Below, one piece after another: positions 5,383 to 61,691 of a stretch of DNA of 64,000 nt. Positions within the stretch are counted from its first letter, which is position 1, and each line of letters starts with the position of its first letter. The stretch comes from Scenedesmus sp. PABB004. Taxonomy: Eukaryota. A model generated the notes under the pieces. That model did no database searches. It was not told the origin of the DNA and worked only from the letters and a program-made list of their open reading frames with translations. The DNA lies in contig JABVCE010000005.1 of assembly GCA_014905635.1 (NCBI GenBank), positions 1,426,001 through 1,490,000 of the forward strand, written 5' to 3'. The translations under genes were made by a program, and so were the position numbers.

Positions 5383-6506
5383 TCACTCGTTGTACGCGTC
5401 GCGGCGCCTCTCGCCGCCGTAGCCGCCGCCGCCACCGCGCCCGCGGCCGCCGCCGCGGCCGCCGCCCCGGCCGCCGCCGCCGCGGCCGCGCCCGCCGCCG
5501 CCGCCGTACTCGCGGCGGCCCTCGCCGCCGCCGCCGCCGCCGTACTCGCGCCGCCGGCCCTCGCCGTCGCCGCCGCCCTCGGCGCGGCGCGCCTCGCGGC
5601 GCTCGCGCCACATCTCGCGCACCTCCGCCGCCACCTCCTCCGCGCCATCGTACACCGCCTGGCGGTCGGCCATGAAGTCGCCGGGGCTGCGCTCGAGGCG
5701 CTTCGTGGAGAGCGTGATGCGGCCCTCGTCCCTGCGCGCGCCGCGAGCGCCGCGTGAGCAGCGCCGGGCGCCGGCGCCGCGTGCGCGCCGCGGTGCGGCG
5801 GGGCGGCCGGCGCGCGCGGCCGCGCGAGGGCGCGGCGGCGGCGCCGGCGCTGTGCGTGCCTGTCGACGCGCAGGACGATGCAGCGGATCTGCTCGCCCAT
5901 CTGGAAGACGTCGTCGACGCTCTGCACGTACTCGGAGCTGATCTGGCTGATGTGCAGCAGCCCCGTCGTGCTGCTGCCCGCGAGCGTGACAAACGCGCCG
6001 TAGGGCTTGAGGCCCGAGATCACGCCGTCCACGACGTCGCCCGTGCGCACGTCCGCCTCGGGCGCCTCCGCCTCCTCCTCCTGCGCCGCGCGAGACGGCG
6101 GGCGGCGGCGGGCGGGCGGCGGCGGGCGGGCGGCGGCGGGCGGCGGGCGGGCGCCGCTCAGCGCTGGCCCGGGCCGCCCCGCTGCGACCGGGCCGGGCGG
6201 GCAGGCGCAGCGGCGGCCACGCCGCGCGGCGGCGCTCCGGCTGCTGCGCTGGCGGCCGCCGCGCCGCGCAGGGGGCCCCCAGACGGCGCGGGGCGGCCGG
6301 CGCACCTGCTCGTAATCCTGAGCGGCCGCGCGGAGCTTGGACGCGGTGCGGGGCGCGAAGGCGAAGGCGCGCGCGGGCGCCGCGACGGCCGGCTGCGCCG
6401 CGCTGCTCCCGCGCCGCTGGGGCGCCGCGGGCCGCGCGGCCGCGCTCGACGGACGGCCGCGGGTCACGAGGCCCGCGGGCGCCGCGCGCCTCAGGGCCAG
6501 CTGCAT
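5383..6506 (-). CDS. Probably plastid-targeted S1 RNA-binding domain protein (ribosomal S1-like) with Gly/Arg-rich tail, 3 exons
   Basis: Arg/Ala-rich transit-like N-terminus. S1 domain GDVVDGVISGLKPYGAFV..GLLHISQIS..RITLSTKRLERSPGD. Tail rich in RGG/EYGGGG. Second intron 5732-5859 is GC-AG. Confidence 0.85.
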
Positions 6507-6795
6507 CGCGCTGCTGCCGAGGAGCGTGGGATGCGCTGGTGTGGCTGCGGTGCGGCGCGAGCGTGAGGCCGTGGGGCGTGTGGCGCGGGGCGTGTGGCGC
6601 ATTTCGGGGCGCGCCAATGAGCAAGCGGGCCCAAGTTTTTGTCAGGGCTCGCTGAACCACGCCGCTGTCCGCTGCTATCGCCGCCGCGCCGCCGCTGATC
6701 GATCACAAAGGCGCCCGCCGCGTCCGCCCGACACCCGCCGACACAAACAGCGGCTGCTGCCAGCGCCCGCGGCGCCGCTCGCTCGCTCGCCGCCG

Positions 6796-8769
6796 ATGGA
6801 GCAGCAGCCTGTCCTCGTCGCCGGCGCGGGGCCGGTCGGGCTGACCGCGGCGCTGTTCCTGGCGGCCGGCGGCGTGCCAGTGCGCGTGCTGGACGCCGCC
6901 GCGGCGCCGAGCGGGCAGAGCCGCGCGCTCGTGCTGTGGCGGCGCAGCCTGCAGACCCTGGACGCCGTCGTGCCGCTGGAGCGCTGGCTCGACCGCGGCA
7001 CGCCGCTCACGGCGGGCTTCTTCGGCGACGCCGGGGCCATCGCCGCGTCACTGGACTTTGATGAGCCGCCCGGGCACGCGCTGCCGGCGGCCGTCCTGGT
7101 GTCTCAGGCCGACGTCGAGGCGGAGCTCACTGCCGCGCTGCGCGCGCGCGGCGTGGCCGTGGAGCGCGGCGTGCGCGTCACGGGCGTGAAATTGGATGCC
7201 GGCGGCGCGGCCGTGCGCTGCGCGCTGCGCCGCGACGGCGGCGGGGCGGCCGGGGCCGAGGAGGAGGCGGCGGTCGCGGCGTTTGTCGTCGCCGCCGACG
7301 GCGCCCACAGCGCCGTGCGCAAGGCGCTCGCGCTGCCCTTTGCGGGCACGACGCTGCCGCGGCAGCGCTGGCTGCTCGTCGACTGTGAGTTTGAGGCGCG
7401 CGGCGCACCCGACGCCCGCGCCGAGGGCGCCCGCAGCCCCGCCGCCGCTGCGGCCGCCGCCGAGCGGACGCCGCCGACCACCGCCATGGCCCTCTTCACC
7501 TCCGCGGTGGGGACCATCGGCCTGCTGCCCATCGGCGGGCGGCCGGGGCTCGTCCGCCTGATCTGGAACGCAGGTGTGGCGGCGGCAGGCGGCGGGGAAG
7601 GGGGGCGGCGGGGCGCGGCCCGACGCACGGCTCCCGCCGCGTCACGCCGCCGCAACGCCGCCGCCGCCCCGCGCGCAGACGCGTCGGCCCCGCCAGGCGA
7701 GGCGAGCCTGGCTGACTGGCAGGCGCTGCTCGACCGCCACACGCGGCAGCAGATCACGCTCACGCGGGTGCTCTGGAGCAGCGAGTTCTCGGTCAGCGAG
7801 CGCCAGGTTGAGAGCTACGTCACGTGCGGCGGGCGCGTGCTGCTCGCCGGCGACGCGGCGCACGTTCACACGCCGGCGGGCGGTCAGGGCCTCAACACCG
7901 GCGTGCAGGACGCCACCAACCTGGCATGGAAGGTTGCGCTGCAGGTCAAGAAGGGCCTCTCGGGACCGGCGCTCCTGCAAACGTACCACGAGGAGCGCTG
8001 GCCTGTCGCGGCGGGCGTGATTCGTCTGTCAGGTGCGCGCCGCGCTGGACGCCGGCGGCGACGGCTGCGGCGGCAGCTCGCGCTTGCACGTCCGCGACCG
8101 CTGCTCTGCCGGCGCCGCCGCAGGCGCGCTGATCCGCGCCAACCGCATGCGCGCCTGGCCGCTGCGCCTGCTGCGTCGTGTCGCGCTGCGCTGCGCCCTG
8201 GCGCTGCCCGCCGTGCGGCACCGCGCCGTGGCGGCACTCGCGGAGGACGCCGTGACGTACGAGGCCGGCAGCCTCGCCGGCGGCGGCGCGGCAGGCCCCG
8301 CCGTGGCGGCGCCGCCGCCGCCGGCGGGCGCGAGCGCGGCCGCACGCGCGGTGTGGGGCTCGTGCCGCGCCGGGCGCGCCTGGCCGGACGTGAGGATCCT
8401 GCTGGACGGTCAGGACGCGCCCGCCACGGCGCTGCTGCGCCCACCGGCGGGCGCGGCCTGCTTCGGCAGCCTCGTGCTGCTGGGCGACGGCGGCGGCGGC
8501 GGCGGCGGCGCGGACGCCGATGCCGACGCCTGGGCGGCGGCGACCAGCGCGTGGCCGTGGCCGCTGCACGTCGCGCGCGTGCGGCCGGCGGCGGCGGGCG
8601 GCGGCGGCGACGGCGGCGCGCTTGGCGCGCAGGACGCGTGGGGTCTGCTCGAGGCCGCGCTCGGGGGCGGGCCGACGGCGTGGGCGTGCTGGTGCGGCCC
8701 GACGGCTACGTCGCGGCCGTGGGCGGCCCGGCGGAGGCCGCCGCCTGGCTGAGCCGCGTCGTGAGCTGA
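6796..8769 (+). CDS. Group A FAD-dependent monooxygenase (aromatic hydroxylase type); apparent 1-nt frameshift near 8663-8667
   Basis: Motifs VLVAGAGPVGL, AADGAHSAVRK, GRVLLAGDAAHVHTPAGGQGLNTGVQDATNLAWK and C-terminal VLVRPDGYVA. Two GT-AG introns. Confidence 0.9.
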   Translation: MEQQPVLVAGAGPVGLTAALFLAAGGVPVRVLDAAAAPSGQSRALVLWRRSLQTLDAVVPLERWLDRGTPLTAGFFGDAGAIAASLDFDEPPGHALPAAVLVSQADVEAELTAALRARGVAVERGVRVTGVKLDAGGAAVRCALRRDGGGAAGAEEEAAVAAFVVAADGAHSAVRKALALPFAGTTLPRQRWLLVDCEFEARGAPDARAEGARSPAAAAAAAERTPPTTAMALFTSAVGTIGLLPIGGRPGLVRLIWNAGVAAAGGGEGGRRGAARRTAPAASRRRNAAAAPRADASAPPGEASLADWQALLDRHTRQQITLTRVLWSSEFSVSERQVESYVTCGGRVLLAGDAAHVHTPAGGQGLNTGVQDATNLAWKVALQVKKGLSGPALLQTYHEERWPVAAGVIRLSGARRAGRRRRRLRRQLALARPRPLLCRRRRRRADPRQPHARLAAAPAASCRAALRPGAARRAAPRRGGTRGGRRDVRGRQPRRRRRGRPRRGGAAAAGGRERGRTRGVGLVPRRARLAGREDPAGRSGRARHGAAAPTGGRGLLRQPRAAGRRRRRRRRRGRRCRRLGGGDQRVAVAAARRARAAGGGGRRRRRRRAWRAGRVGSARGRARGRADGVGVLVRPDGYVAAVGGPAEAAAWLSRVVS

Positions 8770-8968
8770 CGTTCGTTGAACGCCTGGCTGAACCGCGTGT
8801 GTGTTCAAGCGCGCGTGTGCCGCGAGCTGTGCTGCCGCCGCACACGCCACTGGCACGCGGCATACATGTAGGGCGGCTCGCGCTGCCGACCGCTTCTGGG
8901 CCGCCGCTGGAGCGCCCGCGGCCGCCGCAGCAGCTGCGCCGGTCGCGCCGCGGCGCGGCCCCGCCGCG

Positions 8969-9580
8969 ATGTCCACGCTCACCAGCCTGCCCCGCGAGGT
9001 GCTCAAGTGGCTGCTGAGCCTGGACCTGAGCTACGCCGTGCGCAACATCAAGCGGTGCGCGCACGCAACGGCGCCGGCGGTCTTCGGCGAGACGCGCCCG
9101 CTGACCCTGACCGCCCGGGCGCGCGTGAGGCGGCAGGGACTTCTCGAATGGCTTCCTCTTCGCCGAAATTCTGTCTCGCTACTATCCGGGAGACATCTGC
9201 ATGCACTCGTTTGAGAACGTGATCAGCGTGGAGCGCAAGCGCGCCAACTGGGTCGTCCTGGAGCGTCTGTTCAGGGTGCGGCACGCCCCCGGCTCCCGTG
9301 CACGAGCCGCCGAGCGCCGCCGAGCGCCGCCGAGCGCCCGCCGGCCGCGCGCGCAGAAGCGGGACATGCCGATTGACCCGGCCCAGGTGGAGGCGATCAT
9401 CAACGCCGAGGGCGAGGCGGCCAGCGAGGTGCTGCAGACCCTCTACGCCTTCATCAACAGCGACGCGTTCAGGCGCGCCGGGGCACCACCGCGCGCCGCC
9501 GCGCGCCGCCGCGCAGCGCGGCACCCGACCGCGCCGCCGCCGCCGCCGCCGCACAGGGAGTCGCTCAACCCGGAGCAACC

Positions 9581-9648
<68 letters not shown>

Positions 9649-11162
9649 TCCAGCAGCAGCCGGACGCGCAGCAGTACTACGCTGCGCTCGGCGGCCAGCT
9701 CGGCGGCGGCGCGCGCGCGCGGGGGCCGGCCAGCCGGTCGCAGAGCACGGGGCGCTCCAGGTCCAACGGCCGCGGCGCAGAGGCGCCCCCCGGGGGGCAG
9801 GGCTACTGCTACGGTGCGCCGGCGCGGCCCGCGCAGGGGTGCCGGCGGGCGCCCCGCCGCCGCCTCGTCACGCGCGCGCCCTCGTCACGCGCGCGCCGCA
9901 CCGTGCCGCGCCCAGGCTCCGACGGCCAGCTGTACCCCGCGGCGTTTAGCGCGCAGCCGGACGCGCAGCAGCAGGCAGCGCTGTGGCAGGCCGCGCTGGC
10001 GCAGCAGGCCGCGCTCGCGGGCGGCGGCGGCGCGCAGCAGCAGCACCACCACCACCAGCACCACCAGCAGCAGCACCACCAGCAACACCAGCAGCAGCAC
10101 CACCAGCAGCAGCAGCAGCTGGCGGCGTACGCCGAGATGATGGCCGCGCTGGGCGTCGCGCCGGATGGCTCGCTGCTCGGCGGTGCGCCGCCGCCCCGGC
10201 GGGCGCCCGCGCTCGCAGCGCGCGCGGCGCCCCGCCGACGCGCCACCCGCCCGCCTCGCCGCAGGCCCGGCGCAGGGCGGCGCTGCCGGCAGCAGCAGCG
10301 CGCTGGACGAGCTCGCGTTCAACAAGAAGCCACGACCCGTCGAGTTTGAGCCCTACAGCCAGGTCCGCCGCGCCGCAGCCCGCGCGGGCGCGCCCGCCCC
10401 GCAAAGCCGCGGCGGCGAGCTGGCGTGCCGCAGCGCCACACGCGGCTGCCCGCGCCGCGCCGCCCGCGCCCGCCGCGTGCCGGCGCGCAGTCGGACTACG
10501 AGGCGCGCAACTTTGATGCCAAGAAGGCGGCCGGCTACTGGCAGCTGGGGCGTCTGGGGCCGCAGGAGAGCGCCGACGTGCTGGCCAAGGTGCGCGACCA
10601 CGCGCGGCCGGGCGGGCGGCCAGGCTGGGCGGCCGGGTTGCGCGCGCAGACGTCGACGGCGCGCGCGGCCGCCGCCCGCCGCCCGCCGCGCGCCGCAGCG
10701 CGAGGCCAAGGCGCGCGTGCGCGAGCTCAGCCGGCGCATCGGGGCGGAGAACGCGGAGCGCCTCGCCGCGGCGCAGCCGGCGCGGGCGCGGCCCGCCGCG
10801 CCGTCCGCGCGGCAGCGCGCCGTCGCGTACGCCAAGTCGAGCGTGCCGCGCCCCGACCTGCTGCGCCAGCGCAGCAGCGCTGGCGGCGGCGCGCGGCGCG
10901 GGGGCGGCAGCGGCAGCGGCAGCGGCAGCTCTGAGGTGAGCAAGCTCGCGGCGCGGCGGGGCCGCGGCCGGCCGCGGCGGCTGCGGCCGGCGGGCTGACC
11001 CCCGCGCGCCGGCCGGCCGCCGCCGTGCAGGGCGGCTCGGCGTCGGGCGGCGACGAGCTGGAGGCCCTGACCGCGCAGCACGAGGCGTTTGCGGCGCAGG
11101 TGGAGGCGATCCGCGAGCAGCTGTCGCGCTCGCTCGCCGGCGGCGGGGTACAGGCGTCGTAG
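8969..11162 (+). CDS. SPATA4/SPEF1-like calponin-homology flagellar protein with polyQ/H linker and Jhy-like C-terminal segment
   Basis: Spliced N-terminus [57 protein letters not shown]. C-terminal KKPRPVEFEPYSQSDY..YWQLGRLGP. TAG at 11160-11162. Confidence 0.8.
9582..9647 (+). repeat. (CAG)n microsatellite encoding polyQ
   Basis: Perfect CAG run within an exon of the SPATA4-like gene. Confidence 0.95.
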
Positions 11163-11389: not shown

Positions 11390-14300
11390 ATGGCGGACGG
11401 CGGCGGCGCGCCGGCGCAGCAGGCGGTGCCTGATCCGCCCGCCGCGGCCACTCACTCAGACCAGCCCGTGTTCCACCTGTACGACCCGAGCGGCTGGGTG
11501 CGCCCGCCGCCGCGCAGCCGCCGCCGCGCTGCCCCGCTGCCCTGCTGCCGCGCGCCGCCACGGCCGCTCAAGCGCACGGCGTGCCGCGCGGGGCCGGCCA
11601 CAGGTCAACGACCCGAACGGACCCCTCCTGGTGCGGCGGGGCGACCAGAACACTTACCACATGTGCGGGCGCTCGCCCGCGCGCGCGCCCGGCGCAGCGC
11701 TGCCGCCGGCCAGCCTGCCGACCAACCGCTCCAACCGCCGCGCGAGCGCCAGGTTCTTCCAGAACGTCGCCGACACCACCACCTGGACGTGGGGGCTGCA
11801 GTGGGGCCACGCGGTGAGCACCGACCTGCTGCGCTGGCGCCACCTCCCTCCCGCGCTCGTGCCGTCGCCCGGCGGCGCCGACGCCGACGGCTGCTTCAGC
11901 GGCTGCGCCACGGTCGACGCGAGCGGCGTGCCTGCCATCCTCTACACGGGTGCGGCTGCGGCCCCGCGGGCGGCGGCGTGCGCAGCCGCGCTCGCGAGGC
12001 ACGCGCGCGCACCCACCTCGAGGCTCGCGCCCGCTGCGTGCGCACGCAGGCGTCGTCAAGCGCCCCGACGCGGGCGAGCGCGAGGGCATGTGAGCGGCGC
12101 GCCCACGCGCCGCAGCGCGTGGCGGCCGGGCGACGCCCCAGCCGCGCGCACACCCGCCCGCCGCAGGCCCCTGACCGTGAACAAGCTCTGCAACGAGCGC
12201 CAGCTGCTGGCGCGCCCCGCCGACCCGGGTGCGGCCGCGCCGCCGCCCGCGCCCTGCTGCGGCCGCGCCGCCGGCCACGCCCCGCCGTGCGCGCGCGCCG
12301 CCACGCCCCTCCCCGCGCGCGCGCCACCAGGCCCGCGCGCGCCCGCTGAGCGCGCCCCCCTGCCGCGGCCGCGCCGGCGCCGCCACGGGCGCAGGCGACC
12401 CCGACCTGGCGGTGTGGGACAAGGCCGAGGCGCCCTTCCTGCCCGACCCGCTGACCCCGCTGCCGCTGAACTGCTTCCGTGACCCCTTCATCCTGGAGCG
12501 CCCGGCCGCGGCCAACGGGCACACGTGGCGGGTCATGGTCGGCGCCAACCTCGACGTCGCGGAGCTGCAGCGCCAGCAGCTCGCTGCCGGCCTGCGCGGC
12601 GCCGGCGACGGCGGCGCGCCGGGCTCGCCGCCGCCGCGCGCGGCGCCGGCGGAGGCGGGCGGGGGCGGTGAGACGCTCGGCACGGCCCTCGTGTACCGCA
12701 GCCGCACCGCGGAGCTCGAGGGAGGTGCGGCGCGGCGGCGGTGCTTGAGCGCGGGCCGCGCGGCGGCCGGCTGGCGCGCGGGGCTGACGCGCTGACGCAC
12801 TGACGTCGCGCTCCCGTCCCGCGCCGCAGGCTGGGCGTTTGACGGCCTGCTGTGCGTCGCGCGGCCGGGCGAGGGCGCGATCTGGGTGCGGCGCGCGCGC
12901 GGCGGCCGGCCGACGTCGCGCCAGGCGGGGCTGACCCGCGCCCCCACGCCCTTGATTGACTCGGCCCGCAGGAGTGCCCAATCATCGCCCCGCTCGCACC
13001 GCTCAGCGGCGGCAGCGCGCAGCACGCCCCCGGGCGGCGCCGTCGCCCGCGCCGCCCGCGCCGCCGCCCTCGTCGCCAGCGGGGGCGGGCGCCGCGCCGG
13101 CGGCGCGTCGCGGCGCGGCGGCGGCGGCGGCGGCCGCGGCGGAGGACCTGGAGCGCGCCATGTCGGGCTGCCTGGGCCTGTGGCCCCAGGAGCCGCTGGG
13201 TGGCGTGGAGCAGGCCGGCGGCGGCGCGGCGGCACCGGCGGCGGTGACAGCGCGGCGCGTGGACGCCGCCTCACAGCTGCCGGCGCCGGCGTCGTCGCCT
13301 GCGCGGGCGCCGGCGCCGCCAAGCCACGTCTTCAGCGTGAGCTGCGGCGTGTGCCCCGCCATCTGCTGGCTCGGGCGATACTCCGACGGCCGCTTCGTGC
13401 CGGCCGACGGCCCCGACGGCGGGCCGCTCCCGCTGGACCTCGGCGACTGCTATTACGCGCCCAACCTGCTCGAGGACGCGCAGGTGGGCGCGCCGCGCCG
13501 CGTCGGGCAGTGCGCGCACGCGCGCACTCGCGGCGCCGCGCCAGCGACGCGCGCGCTTGAGCAGCACCCCGCGCACGGCGGCGGCTGCGGCGGCGCAGGG
13601 GCGCCAGGTCATCTGGGCGTGGCTGCAGGAGCACCCGAGCCCCTTCTCTCACGACTACGCCGGCTGCATCAGCCTGCCGCGCCAGCTCGCGCTCGGCGTG
13701 CGGCGGCGCCCGCGCAATGCAGCCAGCGGCGGCGCGCGGCGCAGCGCCGAGAGCGCGCGCAGCGGCGGCGGCGACGGCGGCGGCGGCGACGGCGGCGACA
13801 TCTGGGCGGGCAGCGACAGCGACGGCGGCGGCAGCAGCAGCGACGGCGGCGGCGGCCCGCTGGAATATTACCTCCACCAAAGCCCCCTTCCCGAGCTGGA
13901 GCAGCTGCGCTCGGGGCGCGGGCTGCGGCTGCGCGGCATCCGACTGCCGCCAGGCAAGCCCTGGTGCGTGCCGGGCGGCGGCTGGGCGGGCTCCCGCGCG
14001 CCTGCAGCGGCCGACCGCCGCGGTTCGTGGCGCCGGCGTGGCTCCCGCCGACGCACGCCGCCGTCGCCGCACGCGCGCGGTGTCGCAGGAGCGTGCCGAG
14101 CCAGGTGTCGGCCAGCCACCTCGACCTGCTGCTCTCCGTGCGCCCCACGCCCGGCGCCGCGCGGTTCCAGCTGCTGCTGGGGCCGCTGCGCCAGGCAGAG
14201 GGGGAGCAGGGCGCCGGCGGCGCCGTCGCGGGCGCCGGCGGCATCGGCCTCGTGCCCGTGGGCGCCCCGGCGGCGCCGCCGGCGCCGGGGGCGCCCGCGT

Positions 14301-16645
14301 CGCTCGGCGGCGCGCCCGCCGCCAGCCTGCCGGACAGCCCCATTGCCGGCGGCGAGGCGCGCGCGGTGCTGCCGCTGCTGCCACTGCTGCCGCGCGCGGT
14401 GGCCGGCCCCGGCAGCGGCGGCAGCTCTGGCGGCGGCGGCGGCGAGGAGCCTGACGGCGGCCGGGGGCAGCTGTTGGGTCCGGACGGCGGCCCTGCCGCG
14501 GCCGTGCACGTGGCAGCGGCGGTGGAGGCGGTCGCGGCGGAGCACCACCAGGCGGCCAGCATCACCTACGACTTTGACACGTCACAGCTGCAGGTCCTGG
14601 TCGGCCCGCCGGCCGCGGTGCTGCGCCTGCTCAAGCAGCAGGCGGACGAGCTCGCGGCGTCGGGCTCCGGCGGCGACGCAGCCGGCGCTGCCGCCGCGCA
14701 CCACGTGCGGCACAGCAGCCGCACCGGAATGCCCACCGCCGACGTGCTCGGCTATGAGCCGCCCGCGCTGCCGGCCGCACCGCCGGGGGCGCTCGCGGGC
14801 AGCGTGCACGTGGCCGCGGCCGAGGCCGCCGGCGTGCGCGCGCTGAGCGCGCAGCTGCGGGCGCCGGCGCCGGGCGAGCCACTGGCGCTGCGCGTCCTGC
14901 TGGACTACAGCTGCCTGGAGCTTTTTGCCGCCACAGGCGAGGCGCTGACAACGCGAGTTTACCGGGGCGCGCCGACCGCGCGCGCGGCCGAGGTCGCGCG
15001 CCGGGCCGCCGCGGCGCACGCCGCGAGCGAGGCCGAGGCCGCGGGCCTCAGCGACGGCGGCGGCAGCCTCGCCGACCACCTGGGGCTGCTGGTGCAGCAG
15101 CAGCTCCTCGCGCGCACGGGCAGCGGGCGGCTGCTGAGCGGCCTCGCGCGCGGCCTGTCGAGCAGCCTCGGCAGCCTGGGCAGCCCAGCCTCGCAGTCGA
15201 CGCCGGCGGAGAGCCCGCGCGGCGGGGGCGGCGGCCGCGCCCCGCACGCACCCGGCGACGCCCGACAGCGCGGCGGCGGGGGCCCGCTGCTGGGCGGCGG
15301 CGCCGCCGTGGCGCTCAGCCCCGCCACCGCGCTGGAGGGCGGGGGCTACGCGCAGTACTTCAGCCCCGCGCGCGGCAGCCTCAGCGTGCGCGCCGGCCCC
15401 GCGCCCGGCGCGCCGCACGCGGCGTCGGCGCTGCCGCAGCTGTCAGGCATGCCCCTCGCCGCGGCGGCGCCCTGCCCGGGCGACGCCGTCAGCGGCGCGG
15501 CGGCGGCGCTCCTCGGCCTCGCCGGCGGCAGCGACGCGATGGCCGCGCGCTCCGCCGAGGCCGAGGCCGCCGGCGGCACGTCGCTCCGGCGCGGGCGGCG
15601 CCAGGTGTTCGAGGAGGCGCCCGACGACGACGCTGGTGCCCTGCCCGGCGCCGCCGCCGGCAGCCCCGACCGCCCGCCGCCGGCGGCCGATTCTTTTCCG
15701 GGCTTCAGCCCGCACAGGCCGCCGCGGAGCTCCCTCGACCTGGCGCCCAGCCGCGGCGCCGGCGCGCCGACTGTGGCGGCGCGCGCCGCCACGGAGCGCG
15801 CCGACAGCGCCGGCAGCGGCCACGGCAGCGACGGCGGCAGCAGCGCGGGCGCAAAGCTGGCGTCCTGGTTCCAGCGCGCGCGGAGCAGGGCCAAGGCCGC
15901 CCTGGCTGTCGTGCCGCCCACTTTCGGCGTGCCCGTGCCGCCGCAGGTCGGGCCGCAGCCGTCGCCGCCGCCACTGCCGCCGCCGCCGCCAAGCGGCGGC
16001 AGCGCGGCGGAGGGCGGCGGCGCCGACGACGACGCGGCGGCGCCGCGCGACAAGCCCCGCCGCCGCGGCGCCTCGCTGGACGTGCCCAAGCGCGGCCTGC
16101 AGCTCAAGGTCCCGCACCGCCCCGGCGCGCTGCCGCCCGCGCCGGCGCCCCAGCGCGGGCTGCAGCCGCCCCCCGCGGCCGCAAGCGGCCCCGGCAGCCC
16201 CACCTCGCCACCGGCGGGCGCCGGCGCGGACGACGGCGGCGTGCACTCGCCGCGCTCGCCGCCGTCGGGCCCGGGCAGCCGCGGCAGCGGGGGCAGCCCC
16301 TTCACCGCGGTCGGCCGCTCCCCGCGCCGCAACTGGCGCGCGGCCTTTTCCACCTTTTCCGCCACCTTTTCCGGCGACGCGGAGGGCGACGACGAGGGCG
16401 GCGGGCAGGGCCGCGCGGCCGGCGGCGGCGGCGTGTGGGGCGCCGCGGCGCCCGACCCCACCCAGCACCTCGGCCTGTACGCGGGAGCCCTCGCGCCGCG
16501 CGGCGGCGGCCCTCGCGGCAGCGGGCACGCCGGCGAGGGCGGCTCGATGCGCGAGCTGACCCTCGTCGCGCTGGGCGGCGGCGGCGTGGTGCTGCGCCTC
16601 GAGGCGCACGAGATGGGCAGCATGTGGGACGCGCCCGCCGCGTGA
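11390..16645 (+). CDS. Glycoside hydrolase family 32 (beta-fructofuranosidase/invertase-like) with large low-complexity insertions
   Basis: All three catalytic motifs appear after splicing: W|VNDPNG, CFRDP, W|ECP. Also [20 protein letters not shown] and the C-terminal beta-sandwich [20 protein letters not shown]. The frame break at ~13030-13240 is a frameshift or an unrecognised intron. Confidence 0.9.
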
Positions 16646-19967: not shown

Positions 19968-20029
<62 letters not shown>

Positions 20030-20630
20030 GGGCGGCCCCGCGCGCGGCGAGCCGCCGCCGGCGCCAGCGGCCCCGCCGGCGCCGGGCGCGGAGGACGAGG
20101 TGTCGGTGGAGCAGCTCATCGTCGGCGTGCTGCTCTTCACGCCCCTCGCCGGCCTGCTGCCCACGAGCGCCGTGTGGTATGCGCACGCATGCGCCGCGCA
20201 CGTCGCAGTGCTGGGCGCGCGGCTCGCGCTCGTCGCGCTCGGCCGCCTGCTGCGCCTGCGCGCGGCGCACCTGCTCGCGAGCCGCTGCGCGGCGCCGCGG
20301 CGCTTCCCGGGCGCGCTGCTGGTGCTGCCGCTCGCGCGCGAGGGGGGCCCAGACAGCGACGGCGGCGCGGGCGGTGGCGGCGCGCGGGCGCAGCAGCAGC
20401 AGCAGCAGCAGGCGCTGGCGGTGCACTTCTACCGCGCCTGCGTCGAGCCCATGCCCGCCGGCGAGGTGCTGCGCCTGTGCTGGGGCCCGCCGGGCGCGGG
20501 GCCGCGCGGCGGCTGGGGCGCCGCGCTGCGCCGCGGCGCGGCGGCGGTCGTCGCGGGCGAGCGCTGGGGGCTGGGGCTCTTCCTGCCAGCTGCTGTCGCT
20601 GCGCCGCCGCCGAGGCACGTCCAGTGGTAA
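18351..20630 (+). CDS. PIGQ: GPI-GlcNAc transferase subunit Q (PIG-Q/GPI1)
   Basis: Gpi1 domain signatures HIDWLAAGKPGGVKLHLELSLLLG, LRATWRLIRGK and VEQLIVGVLLFTPLAGLLPT. Confidence 0.82.
19965..20028 (+). repeat. (CAG)n microsatellite encoding polyQ in PIG-Q
   Basis: CAG run in an exon. Confidence 0.9.
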
Positions 20631-38160: not shown

Positions 38161-38616
38161 TGTCCACCTCCCTTCCCCGCCCGCCCCGGCCGTGCCCATG
38201 CTCTGTCCGCGCCCGCGTCGATCGTATTAGCTGCCCCAGGTGCGCGCAGGAGCCCGCGGTGGACCGCGCGTGCGCCGAGCAGCTGCGCAGGGATTCGCGC
38301 CGTCTGTCCGACCCATCAGGTGCGACGCGCGCGCGTGGGGCAGGCGCAGCCTGCTTCATGCACGAGGCTTGCGTTTGGAAAGCCTTAGGCGGAATTTTCG
38401 GCAGCATCGAGGGCGCCCTCGGCGGGGGCAGCCGGGGCTGCGCGGGAAAGGGGCTGCCGGGCGGCGCCCGCGTCGTGTACAGCGCCATCACGTTTGCGCT
38501 TACTCAAAATACCTCCCGCGACGAGCGCGCAGGCTGCGAGCGTGCGGTGGCGGGCGGGCGGCGGCGGGCGGCGGAAGCAGCAGCAGCAGCGAGCAGCCAG
38601 CAGCGCCGGCGGTGTG

Positions 38617-52083: not shown

Positions 52084-54348
52084 ATGATCCTTCGGGCGCT
52101 CGCCGCGGTCGCGGCGCTTGCGGCGCTGCGCGGCGCGGCAGCGGCAGCGGCACCGGTGCCGACGCGCGGCGGCGGCGGTCGGCGCCTGCAGCAGGCGCTG
52201 CTGCCGCCGCTGCCCCTGGACACGGGCGGCCTGCCCATCACCATACCGCTGCCCTTCGGGACGCCGGGCACGCCCGCAGCGCCGGCGCGGCGCGGCGCGC
52301 CGTCGGCGCCGGACTGCGCCAACCCGAAGCCGACGCTCGTGCTGATCCCAGGTGCGCTGCCGGGGGGGGGGGGGGGGGGGCAGCCCTCCTGCCTCACCCC
52401 TCCCCCTCCCCCCTGGCCTCCCCCCTCACGCGCCGCCGCGCCGCGCCCGCGCAGGCATCAGCGGCAGCCAGCTCGACGGCACCCAGACGGGCGAGGGCCC
52501 GGGGTGCCCGTCCTTCTCGGCCCCGCGCGCGGTGTGGGCCGACGTGTCGTGGATGCGCAACCTGGCCTGCTTCGCGCACATGATGTCGGTGCGCTACGAC
52601 GCCGCATCGCGGCGCTTCGCCAACTCGACCGGCACCGCCCTCTGGCCGCACGAGGGCGGCTGGCCGGACGGCACGGCCTATCTGCTCTGGCGGCTCTACT
52701 ACAACCCACTGTGGCGCGCGCTGGTGCGGGGGCAGGGCTACCGCCTCGGCGTCGACCTCTTCGCCGCGCCCTACGACTGGCGCCTCGGCTTCGACGGCCT
52801 CGAGCAGGCGCGCGGCGCGGCGCCGCCGGGAGGGGCGGCAGGAGGGGCGGCGGGAGGGGCGAGGGGACGGGCGAGCCTCCCGTGCGCGTCGCCGGCGCGT
52901 CACGCCGCCGCGTCCGCGGCGGCGCCGCGCAGGTGGGGGCGTTTGACCAGATGGCGGCGCGCGTCGAGGCGGCGGTGCGGCAGAACTGCGGGCAGCGCGC
53001 GGTGATCATCAGTCACTCCATGGGCGTCAACGTCGCGCTGCGCCTGCTGCGCCACCCGCGCCTCGGCGCCTGGCGGTGCGCGCGCGCGCACGCTGCGCCT
53101 GCGCACGCCCGCGCAGCCCGCGCGCGCGCGGCCCACGCCGAGCCCCGCGCGCGCGCACGCACGCGCAGGCGCGCCAACGTGCGTGGCCTGGTGCAGATCG
53201 GCGGCGCGTTTGCGGGCGCGTCGGCGACGCTGTGGGAGACCAAGCTGTCAGGCACGCTCAACCCCTACCCCGCCTTCCTCAACGCGCTGCCCCCGCAGGC
53301 GCGGCGGCGGCCGCAGCCGCGCGGGCGCGCCGCGCCCGCGCCCGCGGCGGCGCGGCGGCGCGGCGCGCCAACGAGGGCCGCGCCGCGCGCGCGCGCAGCT
53401 TGTCGCAGCGCTGCCGACGTTCCCGCTCGAGGCCGCGGTCTACGAGTTCAGTCTGGGCATGCCGAGCGGGCTGGTGCTGCTGCCCACGGGCATGGCGGAG
53501 GGGCGGGACCACGTCGTCGTCGCGACGCGGCGCCGGAACTACACCGTCGCGCAGCAGGGACAGCTGCTGCGGGACATGGGCGACGAGCAGTCGGTGCGGC
53601 GCCCGCCCGCGCTCGCCCGGCCCCTGGCCCCCCTGCCGCCGGGCACCGCGTGAGACGTGTGGCCGCCGCCGCGGCCCGCCGCCGCCCGGCGCCGCAGGCG
53701 CTGCTGCTCGACGCGTCGCTCGCGGCGAACCGCGAGCTGCTGGCCGCGGGGCCGGTGCCGGGCGTGGAGACGTTCTGCGTGTACGGCACCGCCGTGCCCA
53801 CACCGCTGACGCTGGTGTACGACGTGGACGCCCTCCCGCGGCGCGCGCCGCTGCGGCGCCCGGCGGCCAAGGTGCTCGGCCCCGGCGACGGATCGATGTC
53901 CCTCGCGACGCTGCGCCTCTGCAGCATGTGAGCGCGACCGCGCGGCGGGAGGCTAGGACCGCCGCCGCCGCCGCCGCCGCCGCCGCGCCCGGCGGCCTGG
54001 CCGGCGCGCGCCGCCGACCCGCGGGCGCCGCGCCGCCGTGCCCGCCGCCGCAGGCTCGCACCGGTGGATCACCTGGTTGAGATCACCGACCCCACGGTCG
54101 ACCACGCGGGCGTGGTGAGCCAGCCCAACGGCCTCGCGGTGCTGCTGTCGGTGCTGGGCAAGTTCTGGGCCGCGCCCGACACTGGGCCGGCGGCGGCGGG
54201 GCCCGGCGCGCGAGGGCCTCAGCAGCAGGCACAGCAGCAGCAGCAGCAGCAGCAGCAGCCGCAGCAGCAGCCGCGTCGAAGTGGCTGGGTGGTGGGCGGC
54301 AAGGGCGGCAAAAATCACGTGGTGTTTGCGGCGGCGGACGGGCGGTGA
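52084..54348 (+). CDS. Secreted LCAT/lysosomal phospholipase A2 (group XV)-like acyltransferase, 7 exons
   Basis: Signal peptide, then PTLVLIPGISGSQL, DLFAAPYDWRL, nucleophile IISHSMG, FCVYGT, GDGSM and DHAGVV. Confidence 0.88.
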
Positions 54349-54842: not shown

Positions 54843-57236
54843 TCACTGCTGCTGCGCCGCCCCCGGCCGCGCGAGCCCTGGCCGCGCGAGCGCGGACGGC
54901 GCCGCCCTGCCCGGCAGCGTGCCAGCCGCCGCCTGCAGCTTGGCCAGCGCCGCGGCCTTCTTGCGCTGCCGCTCCGCCTCGGCCGCCGCGGCGGCACGCT
55001 CCTCCTGCTGTGCCCGCTCCGCGGCCGCCTCGCGCGCGCGCGCCTTGTCCTCGCGCCGCTGCTGCGCCGCGCCGCCTGGCCGCTGCTGAGCGTCGCCCGC
55101 TGCCGCCGCCTGCTGCGCGGCCGCTCCGCTACCCGCCTGCGGGGCTCCGCCGTCGCCCTGCTGCTGCGCCTGCAGGCGCGCGATCTCCCTGTTGATGGCC
55201 CGCACGCTGCGCTTGACCGCCAGCAACTGCTCGCGCGCGTCCACGGCCTGGGGCGGCCGGGCGGCGGGCGGCGTCAGCGCCGCGCTGGCGCGCGGCGCGC
55301 GGCGCGTGCTGGGCGGGGTCGCCCGCCGCCGGCGCGTGCGGCGCAGCAGCAGCAGGCCCGGCCGCCCCGCCCCACCTGGTAGGAGGCCTCCAGGAAGTCG
55401 GGGCTCTGCTCAAACACGCGCAGCTCGGTGGCGGTGAGCAGGATGCTGCACCGCGCGACCGCGGCAAAGCTGAGCGGCTGGCGCTCCCAGACCCCGTCGC
55501 GCAGCAGCACCGCCTCGCTGTAGCACTTTTCCTGCACCCACTCGGGGTCGCTGTCCATCCAGGGCGCCTTGCAGCTGCCCAGCAGGCGCAGGCTGCCGTG
55601 GGGGAAGTCAACGATCGACTCCCAGTCCAGCGCCTCCGCGCCGGGCAGCACCCCTGACTGCTGCTGCTGCGCCTGCTGCTGCTGCTGCTGCTCCGCCTGC
55701 TGCTGCTGCTGCTCCGCCTGCGGCTGCTGCTGCTCCGCCTGCGGCTGCTCGCCGCCGCCCTGCGCGCCGCCGACGGGCTGCAGCCCGACTGCGAGCAGCT
55801 GCTGCGCGGCGCCACCGACGGCCTGGCCCGCGCCCTCCAGCTCTGCGACCACAGCCTGCAGCCGCCGCAGCGCCTCCTGCGCCTCTGCCACCTGCGGCGG
55901 CGGCGACGCGCGCCGAGGGGCGGCGGTCAGCCCGCCGTGCCGTGTCGCGCTCCGCACCCCGCCCTTGCTGCACTGCGGTCCCCGCCGCCGTCGCCTCCGC
56001 GCCGCGCGCGCACCTGCGCCGCGAGCGCCGCCTCCTCGCGCAGCATGGCCAGCGGCGGCAGCCCCGACAGCTCCGCGCGGCAGCGGTTGACCACGGCGCG
56101 CCGCACCGCGCGCGCGGTCGCCTCGACGGTGAAGAGCGCCGGGAAGTTCAGGTGCACCTTGAACAGCGTGCGCATCGACACGACCGGCGCCGCCGCGGCC
56201 GCCGCCGCGCTGCCGCGCAGCCCGTGCGCCGCGGCGGCCTCCTCCGTCACGATCGACACCACGCGCGGCACGAGCGCGGCGAGGAGGGCCGGGTCCAGGG
56301 ACCAGGGGAAGTCGAGCTCCTGGAAGTACCTGGCCGGTGAGCCGTGGCGCCGCGGTGCGGCGGCGGCGGGCGGGCGGGCGCAGGGGGTCGGGCGCGGGCG
56401 CGGGCGCGGGGCACGCGCGGCGGGGGCTGGGCGGGCACCGCGCGCCGCCGCCGGCGCCCCCGCCGCCGCGGCTCACTTGTAGGGCTGCCCGTTGTAGCAC
56501 TCTGCGAGGAAGAGCTTGCGGCGCGTGTGGTGCGCGGTGTTGAAGTAGGGGCGCAGGAAGGCCTCCAGCCGCGACGGCGGCACCTGGTACTTGCCGCCGT
56601 GCGGGTCGAGGCTGCCCAGGAAGCTCACGTAGTTGTAGGGCGCGCCCCTGGGCGCGGGGAAGTGCTGCAGGAAGCTGGGCGGGCGGTAGCGCGACCGCGA
56701 CCAGTACGGCCGCCGCCGCTCGGCGCCGCCGGGCGCGCCGGCCGCGGGCTCGGCCGGCGCGCCCGGCGGCGGCGCGGCCTGCACCGGCACGGGCCCGGGC
56801 CGCTGCTCCAGGGTCCAACTGAACATCACGAAGGGCTGCGCTGCGCCCTGCTCCCCGCGCGCGCGTCCGGCTGCTGCGGCTGCGGCTGCTCCGCCGCCGG
56901 CGCGTCCGGCTGCGCGGCCTCGCCGCGGCGCTCGCTGCCAGCGACGTGCGCGTCCGCGCTGCCGCCAGCCGCCACGCCAGCGGGCAGCCCCTGGCTCAGC
57001 CCTGGCTGCTCCTCAGCCAGCCGTGCCGGCGCCGCCGCCGGCGCATCTGCGGCCGCTGCTGCTGCTGCCGCGTCGCGCGGCGCCGCGCCCGTGCGGCCGC
57101 GCCGCAGCCGCTGCCGCCGCGGCTGGAGCGGCAAGCCGGGCCGCTGTGTCGCCCGGGGCAGGGCGCACGGGGCCCGCACGCCGCGCCTGCACGCGGGCGC
57201 GCGGGCCCGCGACGCCAGCTCCCGCGCAGCGAGCAT
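54843..57236 (-). CDS. NCLDV-type archaeo-eukaryotic primase (AEP/PrimPol-like) domain protein with probable transit peptide and C-terminal coiled coil. Exons ~57236-56477 (frame break at 56853-56856), 56329-56014, 55891-55376, 55247-54843.
   Basis: Segments GGKYQVP..FLRPY..KLFLAE..YKYFQELDF (motif I), KVHLNFP (motif II) and WESIVD..SLRLLGSCK (motif III). Three canonical GT-AG introns. Confidence 0.72.
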
Positions 57237-57756: not shown

Positions 57757-58757
57757 ATGGCGCTGGACATACTCATCGCGGGCAAATACCGCCTGGGGCG
57801 CAAGCTCGGGGGCGGCTCCTTTGGTGAAATCTTTCTGGGAACGAACCTGCAGACCGGCGAGGAGGTCGGCATCAAGCTGGTGCGCCCCCGCGCTCTCGGC
57901 GCGCGCCGGGGCGCCGCCCCGCCCGCCCCCGACCGCCTCGGCGCCCCGGCCGGCCGGGCGCGGAGCGGCGCCGGCGGCGGCGGCGCGGCGGGGCCGCGGG
58001 GCGCCGCCGACGCCCGCGGTCGCGCGCCCGCCGCCGCTGCTGCTGCCGCACGCGCGCTCGCAGGAGTCGGTCAAAGCCCGGCACCCGCAGCTGCTGTACG
58101 AGTCCAAGCTCTACAAGATCCTCCAGGGCGGCGGTGCGGCGGCGGGCGCGCGCGGCGCCCGCGCGATGCCGGCGGCAGCGGCAGCAGCCCGCAGCGCGCA
58201 CGCCCGCCGCCGCGCCGGCGCGCCGCCGACCCGCGCCGGCCCGGCCCGCGCCGCGCAGCGGGCATCCCCAACCTGCGCTGGTATGGCATCGAGGGCGAGT
58301 ACAACGTGATGGTCATCGACCTGCTCGGGCCCAGCCTGGAGGACCTGTTCAACTTTTGCAGCCGCAAGCTCACCGTCAAGAGCGTGCTCATGCTCGCAGA
58401 CCAGATGGTGCGCGCGCCGCGCCGCGCCGCGCCGCGCCGCGCCGCGCCGCGCCGCGCCGCAGGGCCACGAGCGGCGGCGGCTCACGCGCCGCCGGCCGCG
58501 GCCGACCGCGCCGCCGCCGCCGCGCAGATTGCGCGCGTGGAGTACGTTCACTCGCGCAGCTTCATCCACCGCGACATCAAGCCCGACAACTTCCTCATGG
58601 GGCTCGGCAAGCGCGCCAACCAGGCGCGCAGAGCGCGGCGCGGCGCGGGCGATGGATGGATGGTGCCGCGGCGGCGGTGGCGGCAGCAGGCTGCGGGAGC
58701 AGCGGCAGGGACGGCGGCGAGAGCAGCAGCACCAGGCGCAGGCGCAGCAGCAGCAGC

Positions 58758-58791
<34 letters not shown>

Positions 58792-60425
58792 TCAGCAGCA
58801 GCAGCCGAGAGCAGGCGCACCTGCGTCGGACCGACCGCTGACGCCGCGCCGCGCGTCGCGCGTCGCGTCCCCCCGCGCAGGTCAACATCATCGACTTTGG
58901 TCTGGCCAAGAAGTACCGCGACCCCAAGACGCACGTGCACATCCCCTACTGCGAGAACAAAAACCTCACCGGCACCGCGCGCTACGCGAGCGTCAACACG
59001 CACCTCGGCATCGAGCAGTCGCGCCGCGACGACCTCGAGTCGCTCGGCTACGTGCTCATGTACTTCCTGCGCGGCTCGCTGCCCTGGCAGGGCCTGCAGG
59101 CGGCGACGAAGAAGCAAAAGTACGAGAAGATCAGCGAGAAGAAGATGAAGACGAGCTTTGAGTCCCTCTGCAAGGGCTTCCCGATGGAGTTTGTCACGTA
59201 CTTCCAATACGTGCGGTGCGTGCCACGCCGCGCGCGCCGCGCGCGCGGCCGCCGGGGCAGGAGGGGCGCGCGCGGCGGGAGTGGGCAGGCGGCGCCGGCG
59301 CGGCGTCGGCGCGGCGAGCGCGGCGCGCGCGCGTGGCGGGTGTGCGCGCAGGTCGCTGCGCTTTGAGGACAAGCCGGACTACTCCTTCCTGCGCCGCATG
59401 TTCCGCGACCTCTTCGCCAAAGAGGGTGAGGCACCCCTGCGCCGCACCGCCGCGCTGCGATGCCCGCCCGACGGCGCGGGGCGGCCAGCGGGGCGGCCAG
59501 CGGCTACTCCGGCGGCCGCGGCGCCCAGCGCGTGGCTCCGTGCTCACGCGCCGCGCTCACGCGCCGCGCCGCGCCGCGCCGCGCCGCGCCGCGCGCCGCC
59601 CAGGGTGGAACTGGGACTACGTGTTTGACTGGACCATCCTCAAGTACCAGCGCTCCAACGGCGTCGAGCGGCCGGTCGCGGTCGCCAACGCGCCCGCGGC
59701 GCTGCCCGCGGCCGGCGCCGGCGGCGCCGGCATGGCGAGCGCGGCGGCGGCGGCGGCCGCGGCGGCGACGCAGCAGCAGGCCGCGGCGGCGGCGCTGGGC
59801 AGCGACCCCAGCAAAGGCGCGCGGGGCGACACGAGCGGGCAGGCCTACAAGCAGTACCGCAGCAGCAGACCGTGAGGCCCGCGCACGGGGGGGGGGGGGG
59901 GCGCGCAGCCGCGCCGCGCGCGCGACGGGGGCGCCGGCCGGCCCTGGGGCGCGCTGCGCCCCCACCGCGCCCCGCGCCGACCCCCCGCCCGCCGCCGCCG
60001 CGCCGCCCGCCGCGCGGGCCGCAGGGAGCCGCAGCAGCAGAGCGGCGGCGACGCGGGGCAGAGCTCCAGCCGGCAGCGCAGCGCTGACGCGGCGGCGGCG
60101 GCTGGCCGGTCCGGCGCGGCGGAGCAGAGCCGCGCGGCGGCGACGGCGGCGCAGCAGCAGCAGGCGACGGCGGCGCAGGCAGCAGCCGCGGCGGCGGGGG
60201 CGTCGCAGGCAGCGGCGCCGCCGACCAAGGAGGAGAAGTCGCGCAAGGTGCGGCGCGGCGGCGGCGGCAGCGGCGGCGGCGCCAGGGCTGCGCGGCGGCG
60301 GCAGGGCTGTGGGCGTCGTCGCTGGGCGCCGCGCGCCTGACACAGCCCCCCCCCCCCTCTCCCCGGGCCTGCCCGGGCGCCCCGCGCAGAGCCTGTGGGC
60401 CAACTTCCTCCACAAAAAGACGTAG
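57757..60425 (+). CDS. CK1: Casein kinase I (delta/epsilon-like), 9 exons
   Basis: Segments [70 protein letters not shown] and [13 protein letters not shown]. Confidence 0.97.
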
Positions 60426-60909
60426 CGGCCGGCGCGCGCAGCAGCCGCTCTCGGCTGCGGGACGGCGCCGCCGTGCCCGCGCCCGCGCCTATGATTGCGT
60501 GTCCCCGCCTGGGTATGGCGAGGGGCAGCAGCCGCTGCAGCTGCAGCTGTTTTGAGGGCGGGCGTTGTCGTGCGGCGCGGCGCGCTGAGGGGAGGAGGCC
60601 CCTTCGCGCCGCGCCGGTTCGTGCCGGGGATGGCGGGCGCACTGTCTCAACACTTGGCGGGGCCTGCACACAGCTCAGTCGGCGGCGGCTTCTCCGCCGC
60701 GCTCGACCAGTGTACCTGTGTTCCTGTTGCATGCACACGCGCGTGTGCGTTTCTGTTTGATGGGTGCGCCCGGCGGCGGCCGATGACGAGTCTTGCCGGC
60801 GCGCGCAGCTGCCGTCGCTCGGCGGCGCGACCGCTGCTGCGCTCGCGGTAACACGCTCGCGAGGCGAGGCGAGGCACCCCGCCCCGCCCGGCCACGCCGC
60901 CACCCGCCG

Positions 60910-61691
60910 CTACTTGGCCGCGCCGAGCGGCGCCTTGCAGAGCTGCAGCTTCTTGAACAGCGCCGCGCCCTGCGAGCGCCGGCAGGGCTTGGTGGCGAGG
61001 CAGGTCGGGTAGTTCTCCGGCTGCTCCACCCACAGCTTGTGCGGCAGCCCCGCCTCGCGCAGCTTGGCGGCGAGGTTGACCAGCTGCTGCTCCGACTTGA
61101 CCTCCAGCACGACCTGCGCGCGCGCGGCCGCGCGCTCAGCACGCGCGGCGCGCGGCAGCCGGCGCCGCCGCCGCCGCCGACCGGCCGCCGCAAGCGGCGC
61201 CTGCAGCCGGCGCTGCCGCCACCGGTGCTCGCGCGCGTGGCGGGCAGCGGCCAGCCGGCGCGGCGTGCCTTGTGCATGTGGTCTAGGTTGGCCGGCGCCG
61301 TGTATTCCTGGGTCAGCGGGTCGGACAGGCTCTCGACCATCGCCGCCGTGGACGCGTGGCAGGCCTGCGCGATCACGGGCCCCAGCGGCCAGCCGATGTC
61401 GGTCCACAGGTCCCGCCGCAGCACCACCCACTGCACGATCGGGTCGGGCGCCGCGCCGCCGCAGCAGTCTGGCGCTGCCGCTGCCGCTGCTGCTGCTGCC
61501 GCCGCCCCGGCCGCGCCCGCGTCCGGCGCCGGGCCGCCGCCGCCGCCCGCGGCCGCCGACGACATGCGTGCTCGTCGGGCTGCTTGCCAGGGCCCTGGCT
61601 GCTGCGGACTGGGGCGCCTGGCGGCGGCGGCGGCAGCGGCAGCGGTGCGCAGCGACGACGGGCCGGACAGGGCGCGCTGCGCGCAGCGCAT
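60910..61691 (-). CDS. PTRHD1: Peptidyl-tRNA hydrolase PTH2-family protein (PTRHD1-like), 2 exons, probably organelle-targeted
   Basis: IVQWVVLRRDL..WPLGPVIAQACHA..LDHMHK|VVLEV..HKLWVEQPENYPTCLATKP, with a GC-AG intron (donor 61268). Confidence 0.88.

Follow-up and report, generated by a model that had tools for sequence, protein, structure and literature searches.

The 64,000-nt stretch of Scenedesmus sp. PABB004 DNA analysed here (the window: contig JABVCE010000005.1 of assembly GCA_014905635.1, positions 1,426,001 to 1,490,000; coordinates below count from its first letter) carries intron-rich genes in which many introns begin with GC instead of GT. The genes for which GC donors were claimed encode SPT16, a P-type ATPase, BBS4, MER3/HFM1, casein kinase 1 (CK1), an S1-domain protein, PTRHD1, an LCAT-like protein and a SPATA4-like protein. 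The G+C content was 77-82% in each 4-kb bin and 79% overall. The top homologues of SPT16, the P-type ATPase and BBS4 came from sphaeroplealean green algae (Tetradesmus, Scenedesmus, Monoraphidium, Raphidocelis), and two deposited Scenedesmus sp. PABB004 proteins, P0121 ('ctpF') and P0198 ('BBS4'), showed 100% identity to window exons. A table in PMC12571836 gives 78.5% G+C, 39.8 Mb and 7,092 genes for this genome, and the same source gives a G+C range of 56-79% for Sphaeropleales; neither the word 'splice' nor 'intron' appears in that paper. The window is nuclear DNA of a sphaeroplealean green alga.

The initial annotation of the window proposed 22 GC donors, and GC indeed directly follows the proposed exon end at all 22 cited positions. 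The proposed donors read AG/GCGCG in 18 cases, AG/GCACG in two, and AG/GCGAG and CG/GCGAG once each, as had been described (the slash marks the exon-intron boundary). GC beside a plausible exon end is uninformative on its own, because GC makes up 21.4% of the dinucleotides in the window, about six times the 3.6% of GT, and GC-type motifs are abundant by chance: on both strands together, G/GCG[CA]G occurs 1135 times and AG/GCG[CA]G 95 times. Motif counting was therefore rejected as evidence for GC donors, and all reading frames are open at such composition. These figures also favour the view that GC lies beside the true junctions by chance, with nearby GT sites as the real donors, or that the junctions are misplaced. 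Since GC is commonplace in the window, donors were fixed without using splice signals. In a signal-blind test, all frame-preserving donor/acceptor pairs between adjacent exon matches were scored against a reference protein with dinucleotides ignored, and the flanking dinucleotides were examined only after the spliced translations had been scored (margins are in BLOSUM units). The second method was spliced alignment by dynamic programming (DP), with three intron phases allowed.

At GT-AG introns, the GT-AG solution fell within the top-scoring set of the blind test, and at the claimed sites the AG-ending member of the top set began with GC. Of the 22 claimed donors, 17 were strongly confirmed by homologue alignment or a PDB match (six in SPT16, four each in the P-type ATPase and BBS4, two in MER3 and one in CK1); at these 17 junctions GC-AG alone among G[TC]..AG solutions lay at or close to the signal-blind optimum. 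Another four (S1 5859, PTRHD1 61268, LCAT 52808 and LCAT 53299) were supported by frame logic, with Pfam added for the first three, and none of the 22 was refuted. In SPT16, the ATPase and BBS4, the AG-ending solution began with GT (34) or GC (14) and with no other dinucleotide at 48 of 48 junctions. When these 48 introns were excised, each of the three genes became a single open frame with full-length alignment. Low-support alternative junctions (1-3 references) in the blind tests of SPT16, the ATPase, BBS4 and MER3 were set aside. The length was not a multiple of three in 14 of the 21 supported GC-AG introns, so these 14 need removal. Judged by comparison with homologous proteins, these results confirmed that the GC donors are real and far exceed the usual 1-2%.

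In SPT16, 23 introns were backed by at least 6 of 12 references in the blind test, 17 with GT and six with GC, and DP returned the same 17 and six. An additional 5-prime GT intron (27380-27472) came from DP with reference P0001. The six GC donors that had been proposed were each placed by 11-12 references, with mean margins over the best GT-AG of +12.5 to +48.8. On the forward strand they open the introns 30375-30504 (130 nt, cag/GCGCGC; 12 references, margin +27.4, in the top set for 9/12, also by DP), 31343-31512 (170 nt; 12 references, +19.8, 12/12, also by DP), 31878-32081 (204 nt, a multiple of three; 11 references, +12.5, 10/11), 32870-32998 (129 nt, a multiple of three; 12 references, +48.8, 12/12), 33180-33376 (197 nt; 12 references, +27.3, 12/12) and 33548-33806 (259 nt; 12 references, +25.2, 4/12). 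The competitor of 31878, an in-frame GT at 31887, has C at -1 and scored -5.0 on a donor matrix, and no in-frame GT was found within 60 nt of 33548. Among deposited proteins of 103-2000 residues, none was found with the SPT16 exon 33374-33547, the best match being 95% identical and from another source. The SPT16 gene (27311-34470, forward strand) may thus be lacking or merged in the deposited annotation. An ab initio gene finder likewise merged it with downstream genes (27311-42077). A metagenome scan with P0001 kept 80 loci (L001-L080), each matching the protein over its full length within about 3 kb (identity 41-55%); being intronless and distant, they offer no basis for comparing GT with GC donors. 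Two SPT16 introns hold repeats on the forward strand: telomere-like CCCTAAA units form a short run at 29640-29686, directly before the acceptor of intron 29522-29686, and a (GT)n microsatellite lies at 32600-32700 within intron 32588-32813.

The P-type ATPase gene has 17 introns, four of them with GC donors, fixed by 8-14 independent references with margins of +25.6 to +58. All four donors named initially (26335, 22988, 22739 and 21971) were recovered in the blind test and are also present in the deposited model P0121. The introns lie on the reverse strand at 26223-26335 (113 nt; 8 references, +25.6, top set 8/8), 22884-22988 (105 nt, a multiple of three; 14 references, +58, 14/14), 22582-22739 (158 nt; 14 references, +28, 14/14) and 21833-21971 (139 nt, cag/GCGAGC; 14 references, +27.2, 8/14). 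The spliced product equals P0121 at 1024 of 1024 residues.

In BBS4, half of the eight introns start with GC. The four donors (50260, 50731, 50935 and 51456) were fixed by the blind test with 9-15 references and margins from +18 up, in agreement with their first description, and several of the references bear transcript-assembly names (P0200, P0209, P0210, P0223, P0226, P0227). On the forward strand, the introns span 50260-50349 (90 nt; 14 references, +22.3, top set 11/14), 50731-50823 (93 nt; 15 references, 14/15, no GT-AG alternative being found with these 15 references), 50935-51061 (127 nt; 15 references, +27.9, 13/15) and 51456-51541 (86 nt, acg/GCGAGC; 9 references, +18, 9/9). The donor at 51456 is the weakest of the four. 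The deposited model P0198 has six introns, all with GT; it has four GT introns in common with the structure found here and lacks all four GC-AG introns. The model translates straight through 50260-50349 and 50731-50823, both of which are in frame and stop-free, and it substitutes the GT at 50908 (donor score -8.3) for 50935 and the GT at 51468 (-6.4, with A at -1) for 51456. As a consequence, 61 residues of P0198 are translated intron and two of its junctions are misplaced. GT-restricted models thus read through in-frame GC-AG introns or choose poor GT sites. The expectation that gene predictors would mis-model these genes held for BBS4, where P0198 misses four of four GC-AG introns, and failed for the ATPase, where P0121 uses four of four. 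Mis-modelling is therefore not universal, and the pipeline took some GC donors, because P0121 uses all four of its GC-AG introns.

The treatment of two BBS4 stretches as coding in P0198 raises the question of whether some of the supposed introns are in-frame low-complexity coding insertions that are kept in the mRNA. Lengths are compatible with this view for some introns, since seven of the 21 supported GC-AG introns are multiples of three; of the five that belong to the 48-intron set, four lack stops in all three frames and the other lacks them in at least one. On the other side, no homologue has residues at the two BBS4 stretches (9-15 references), and their translations consist of 69-90% alanine, arginine, proline or glycine in each frame. 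The stretches are bounded by G/GCGCG and CAG like the 14 GC-AG introns that require removal, and GT introns are multiples of three in an equal share of cases (12/34). We consider retained coding insertions quite improbable. With stop codons scarce at 79% G+C, introns divisible by three were stop-free in at least one frame in 11 of 12 GT cases and 5 of 5 GC cases, and intron retention would often escape frame-based checks.

Both MER3/HFM1 donors proposed at the outset, 43570 and 45068 (forward strand), were confirmed by the blind test and DP. For the intron 43570-43671 (102 nt, a multiple of three), the acceptor is fixed, and all donors that keep the frame are GC. It entered the blind top set only for the closest reference, P0395, with the best GT about 10-28 units lower, and in DP it was chosen by 2/8 references, while 43540 was chosen by 3/8. 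The intron 45068-45151 (84 nt, a multiple of three) was favoured over GT by +21.5 with 14/14 references and was chosen by 8/8 in DP; its product is one residue shorter than all references, and therefore it was never in the blind top set. In total, 12 GT and two GC introns were counted in this gene, and the stretch 44770-44953 was left out of the count. Several further DP calls were rejected: 43343 (tgc/GCCGAC), chosen by 4/8 references when GC was allowed, lies beside a perfect gac/GTGCGG at 43349 that was chosen without GC; 44808 (5/8 references) has no G at -1; and 43064, 43540, 43814, 44795 and 45335 were called by 2-3/8 references each.

The CK1 donor at 58624 was fixed to the residue, as alignment with PDB 3sv0_A runs through Q144 in the upstream exon and continues from V145 in the downstream exon. 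The Pkinase profile is matched at 111-131 and then at 136-220 across this 257-nt GC-AG intron (58624-58880, forward strand), which contains a CAG repeat. Long CAG/CTG-type repeats were found at 58697-58823, 9551-9684, 10034-10142, 19943-20028 and 55645-55750 (poly-Q, poly-S or poly-L when translated), and they sit both within this CK1 intron and in seemingly coding stretches.

For the S1, PTRHD1 and LCAT-like genes, the claimed GC donor ranked first among frame-compatible pairs in all four cases, and the best GT pair scored -8.4 to -25.2 bits or did not exist. None of the intron lengths (S1 128, PTRHD1 155, LCAT 125 and 100 nt) is a multiple of three. A Pfam run on 109 single predicted exons of other genes gave too few hits for an unbiased census, and it sharpened the placement of PTRHD1, LCAT 52808 and S1, whose Pfam coordinates either run on across the junction or are compatible with it. 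The S1-domain gene has a probable GC-AG intron at 5732-5859 (reverse strand, 128 nt, cag/GCACGC; best GT pair -13.9), and its upstream exon ends at profile position 63/74. The probable PTRHD1 intron at 61114-61268 (reverse strand, 155 nt, aag/GCACGC) has no frame-compatible GT pair; here the upstream exon covers PTH2 profile positions 2-35 followed by 18 further residues, and the first residue of the downstream exon is profile position 52. In the LCAT-like gene, the probable intron 52808-52932 (forward strand, 125 nt; best GT pair -8.4) is flanked by Pfam LCAT matches: position 97 is reached six residues before the exon end, and the profile resumes at 105 at residue 4 downstream. The probable intron 53299-53398 (forward strand, 100 nt; best GT pair -25.2) was placed by sequence logic as the top-ranked pair, and no Pfam or PDB match was found for its flanking exons. 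PDB searches with the LCAT exons and the upstream PTRHD1 exon gave no useful match. The last claimed donor, 9473 in the SPATA4-like (CH_2) gene on the forward strand, lies beyond the CH_2 domain: the profile match stops at residue 31 of that exon piece, short of the donor. The acceptor of the candidate intron 9473-9556 comes only from the ab initio finder, which is unreliable.

With these junctions in hand, the view that GC is a chance neighbour of the real site could be weighed. At the 17 homology-fixed junctions, the best GT-AG solution costs 12.5-58 units or is absent, and CK1 is exact to the residue. On the donor matrix, in-frame GT competitors within 60 nt scored -22.7 to +0.6 bits and mostly lacked the invariant G at -1. 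The GCGCG and GCGAG donors scored 5.8-10.0 bits and the two GCACG sites 0.5 and 3.8, against a median of 5.3 and a minimum of 0.2 bits for verified GT donors. The summed DP score was highest with GC both for SPT16 (15349 versus 15132, 14350 and 14466) and for BBS4 (5772 versus 5527, 4896 and 5131); decoy dinucleotides occupied the same loci with lower scores, so that this comparison ranks dinucleotide fit and gives no false-discovery rate. In favour of chance neighbours are the false DP calls with distant references, such as MER3 43343, and the behaviour of the ab initio finder, which called GC 69 times and the decoys CG, CA and CC 73, 70 and 57 times. Taken together, we regard misplacement next to real GT donors as very improbable.

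The finder just mentioned is a generalised hidden Markov model trained on the verified intron set. It recovered 47 of the 48 verified introns and predicted 190 introns, 69 of them with GC. As evidence for GC donors this census was rejected, because decoys put in place of GC were called equally often; besides the three above, the counts were CT 48, GG 39, TC 29, GA 26, AC 26 and TG 15. The frequency was therefore estimated from the resolved genes and a floor. GC-AG introns account for 14 of 49 introns in the three fully resolved genes (29%, confidence interval (CI) 17-43%) and, with MER3 included, for 16 of 63 (25%, CI 15-38%; p against 2% about 1e-13). The floor for the window, 21 supported GC introns over 154-190 ab initio introns, is about 11-14%, and the 16% of the earlier hand count (22 of about 140) falls in between. 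A frequency far above about 1% had been claimed, and both the resolved genes, which are biased upward, and the floor lie at 10% or more. Roughly one intron per four to eight in the window would thus have a GC donor.

GC and GT donors in the 48-intron set share most of their features. G is found at -1 in 48/48, G at +3 in 48/48, C at +4 in 41/48 and G at +5 in 45/48 donors, and acceptors read CAG in 46/48, in both classes. The verified GT donors are of the GTGCG type, as described before, with C at +4 in 29/34 and G at +5 in 31/34. The two classes were alike in intron length (medians 130 and 140 nt) and in divisibility by three (5/14 GC, 12/34 GT). A CTRAY branch motif was present in 2/14 GC and 5/34 GT introns and did not discriminate between them. 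In this set CTRAY was found 8-75 nt from the acceptor in 7/48 introns, and in 0/21 in a control 10-77 nt from the 5-prime end; the branch signal seems degenerate in this genome. Minor (U12-type) introns were considered and rejected, as RTATCCTT was not found and 14/14 verified GC donors read GCGCG or GCGAG.

The feature that separates the two classes is the base at -2. A at -2 was present in 13/14 GC donors and in 14/34 GT donors (Fisher p=0.0011), which bears out the proposal that a strong exonic AG accompanies GC donors. After exonic AG, 13 donors were GC and 14 GT; in other contexts, one was GC and 20 were GT. GC and GT donors matched the textbook U1-complementary consensus CAG/GTRAGT at equal numbers of positions (5.79 versus 5.97, p=0.64), and the pair lost at +2 seems to be regained at -2. 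The same asymmetry bears on assembly or polishing errors, by which T at +2 of ordinary GT donors would have been turned into C. Extreme G+C regions are difficult to sequence, but the errors would need to have struck +2 precisely at 17 or more independent sites, corrupted GT donors would keep GT-like flanks, and the deposited ATPase protein was built on the same four GC donors. Such errors are a highly unlikely source of the pattern. The termini are the same as in ordinary U2-type GC-AG introns, as is the reliance on a stronger remaining consensus, and the consensus here is G/GCGCG instead of a GCAAGT-like one. Compensatory signals at human GC donors have reportedly been examined in one study.

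In our judgement, these are with high probability ordinary U2-type introns with a GC donor, compensated by the exonic AG and likely driven by G+C pressure, and they would make up at least about a tenth of the introns in the genome and a quarter in the best-resolved genes. Under this explanation, the local donor consensus would be G/GYGCG, in which G at -1, +1, +3 and +5 is fixed or nearly so and +2 is T or C. C at +2 would be tolerated nearly only behind exonic AG, where a U1 pair at -2 may replace the pair at +2 and leave total complementarity unchanged. Strong G/C pressure in a 79% G+C genome would then turn the otherwise obligatory T at +2 into C where the remaining site is strong enough. 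G+C pressure is the likely evolutionary cause, in line with what has been proposed for Emiliania huxleyi and pelagophytes.

A different explanation is that the splicing machinery itself has changed, in the 5-prime end of U1 small nuclear RNA (snRNA), U6, U1C/LUC7 or PRP8, so that +2 is not read and GC is a designed-in state. In both classes the consensus G/GYGCG differs from GTRAGT at +4 and +6, GC and GT are almost equally frequent behind AG (13 versus 14), and CTRAY is present in only 7/48 introns, all of which would fit this idea. GC donors still need A at -2, which fits ordinary U1 pairing rules, and standard spliceosomes already handle GC-AG introns. We consider a changed machinery unlikely. 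A bolder form of the same idea, which we put forward only tentatively and think doubtful, is that +2 is nearly irrelevant once the exon ends in AG and that the donor is a G-only skeleton, G/GNGNG, with a co-evolved U1 5-prime end, U6 ACAGAGA box or U1C/LUC7.

Several points weigh against reading these sites as AG-compensated U2-type donors shaped by G+C pressure. Splicing at the GC sites is deduced throughout from protein homology, and reading frame does not discriminate between removal and retention of the seven supported GC-AG introns divisible by three. The introns scored by the donor matrix are also those on which it was trained. Because GC donors were what drew attention to the four resolved genes, 25-29% is an overestimate for the window. 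The references for MER3/HFM1 are distant and their results noisy, and DP with GC allowed gave seven GC calls with them that were rejected. At BBS4 51456, where alone among the GC donors the exon does not end in AG, P0198 uses a GT that lies in frame 12 nt downstream (51468). S1 5859 and PTRHD1 61268 are somewhat weaker because they carry A at +3, seen in 0/48 verified donors. The argument on U1 pairing was made with the textbook consensus and not with the alga's own U1. Finally, across lineages the GC-AG share does not follow from G+C content alone and is not a simple function of it, because it is 56% in Emiliania huxleyi at 65% G+C and about 11-29% in the window at 79%. The overall interpretation is partly supported, in that compensation and mis-modelling were observed and a G+C cause is plausible.

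Pfam matches to single exons placed other genes around those discussed above, and also delimited some of the latter. On the forward strand are a 2OG-Fe(II) oxygenase (3519-4847), an FAD-dependent monooxygenase (6796-8031), the CH_2/SPATA4-like gene (8933-10600), GH32 (11390-15000), Gpi1 (19127-20630), a TPR plus methyltransferase gene (36390-37996) and the LCAT-like gene (52084-54348). The S1-domain gene (5383-6506) and PTH2/PTRHD1 (60910-61565) lie on the reverse strand. Two predicted forward-strand exons match the alginate lyase family PF05426, at 39710-39841 (profile 58-92, E 3e-6) and 41033-41356 (profile 227-268, E 0.005), a family unexpected for a green alga. No RNA families, including snRNA, were found by Rfam in the 64-kb window.

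GC-AG introns are close to 1% in animals, plants and fungi, where GT-AG stands at about 98% kingdom-wide (PMC7072748). For Chlamydomonas reinhardtii, a green alga, Table 2 of PMC2846911 lists 532 GC-AG and 25,053 GT-AG introns supported by expressed sequence tags (ESTs), or 2.1%; set against this table, GC-AG introns are some 5 to 14 times as frequent here. The closest known parallels are algae of other lineages. In E. huxleyi, 135 of 241 curated junctions (56%) were GC-AG on the basis of ESTs and reverse transcription PCR (13 junctions), which was attributed to its 65% G+C, and GT-biased prediction gave many wrong junctions (PMC4028052). Our case resembles it in several ways: the nuclear genome is algal and rich in G+C, GC donors greatly exceed 1%, AG acceptors are retained and GT-biased models are in error. 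In contrast to the transcript-verified GC majority of E. huxleyi at 65% G+C, GC donors here are a minority of about 11-29% at 79% G+C in a green alga, known from homology, and show a marked exonic AG requirement. In the pelagophytes Aureococcus anophagefferens and Pelagomonas calceolata, about 14-17% of introns were predicted to be GC-AG, credited to high G+C, compared with 0.32% in a lower-G+C relative (10.1101/2024.10.30.620910). The GC-AG share is similar to ours and the proposed cause is the same, whereas the pelagophytes are stramenopiles with 0.1-0.9 introns per gene and figures from an annotation pipeline, as opposed to 8-24 introns per gene and homology-fixed junctions here. A survey of 263 species also placed E. 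huxleyi and Aureococcus among those rich in non-canonical introns (PMC11347168). Among the papers listed in searches of the open-access literature, which covered six sphaeroplealean genera, other green algae and this strain, no report was found of abundant GC-AG introns in green algae, in Sphaeropleales or in this genome. Abundant GC-AG introns in G+C-rich algae are thus already known, and the case added here is green-algal, intron-rich and of extreme G+C.

With these results, the few lineages rich in GC-AG introns come to include a green alga whose nuclear genome ranks among the most G+C-rich recorded for eukaryotes. For annotation they are a warning, as GT-favouring annotations of this genome are wrong at such introns, and we speculate that its low gene count (7,092) may be due in part to GC-AG mis-annotation. 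Sphaeropleales, at 56-79% G+C, offer a graded series for testing composition-driven conversion of GT to GC and its compensation. If +2 were nearly irrelevant behind exonic AG and the donor a G-only skeleton, this alga and its relatives, from 56% to 79% G+C, would be a natural experiment on the re-tuning of the major spliceosome by base-composition pressure.

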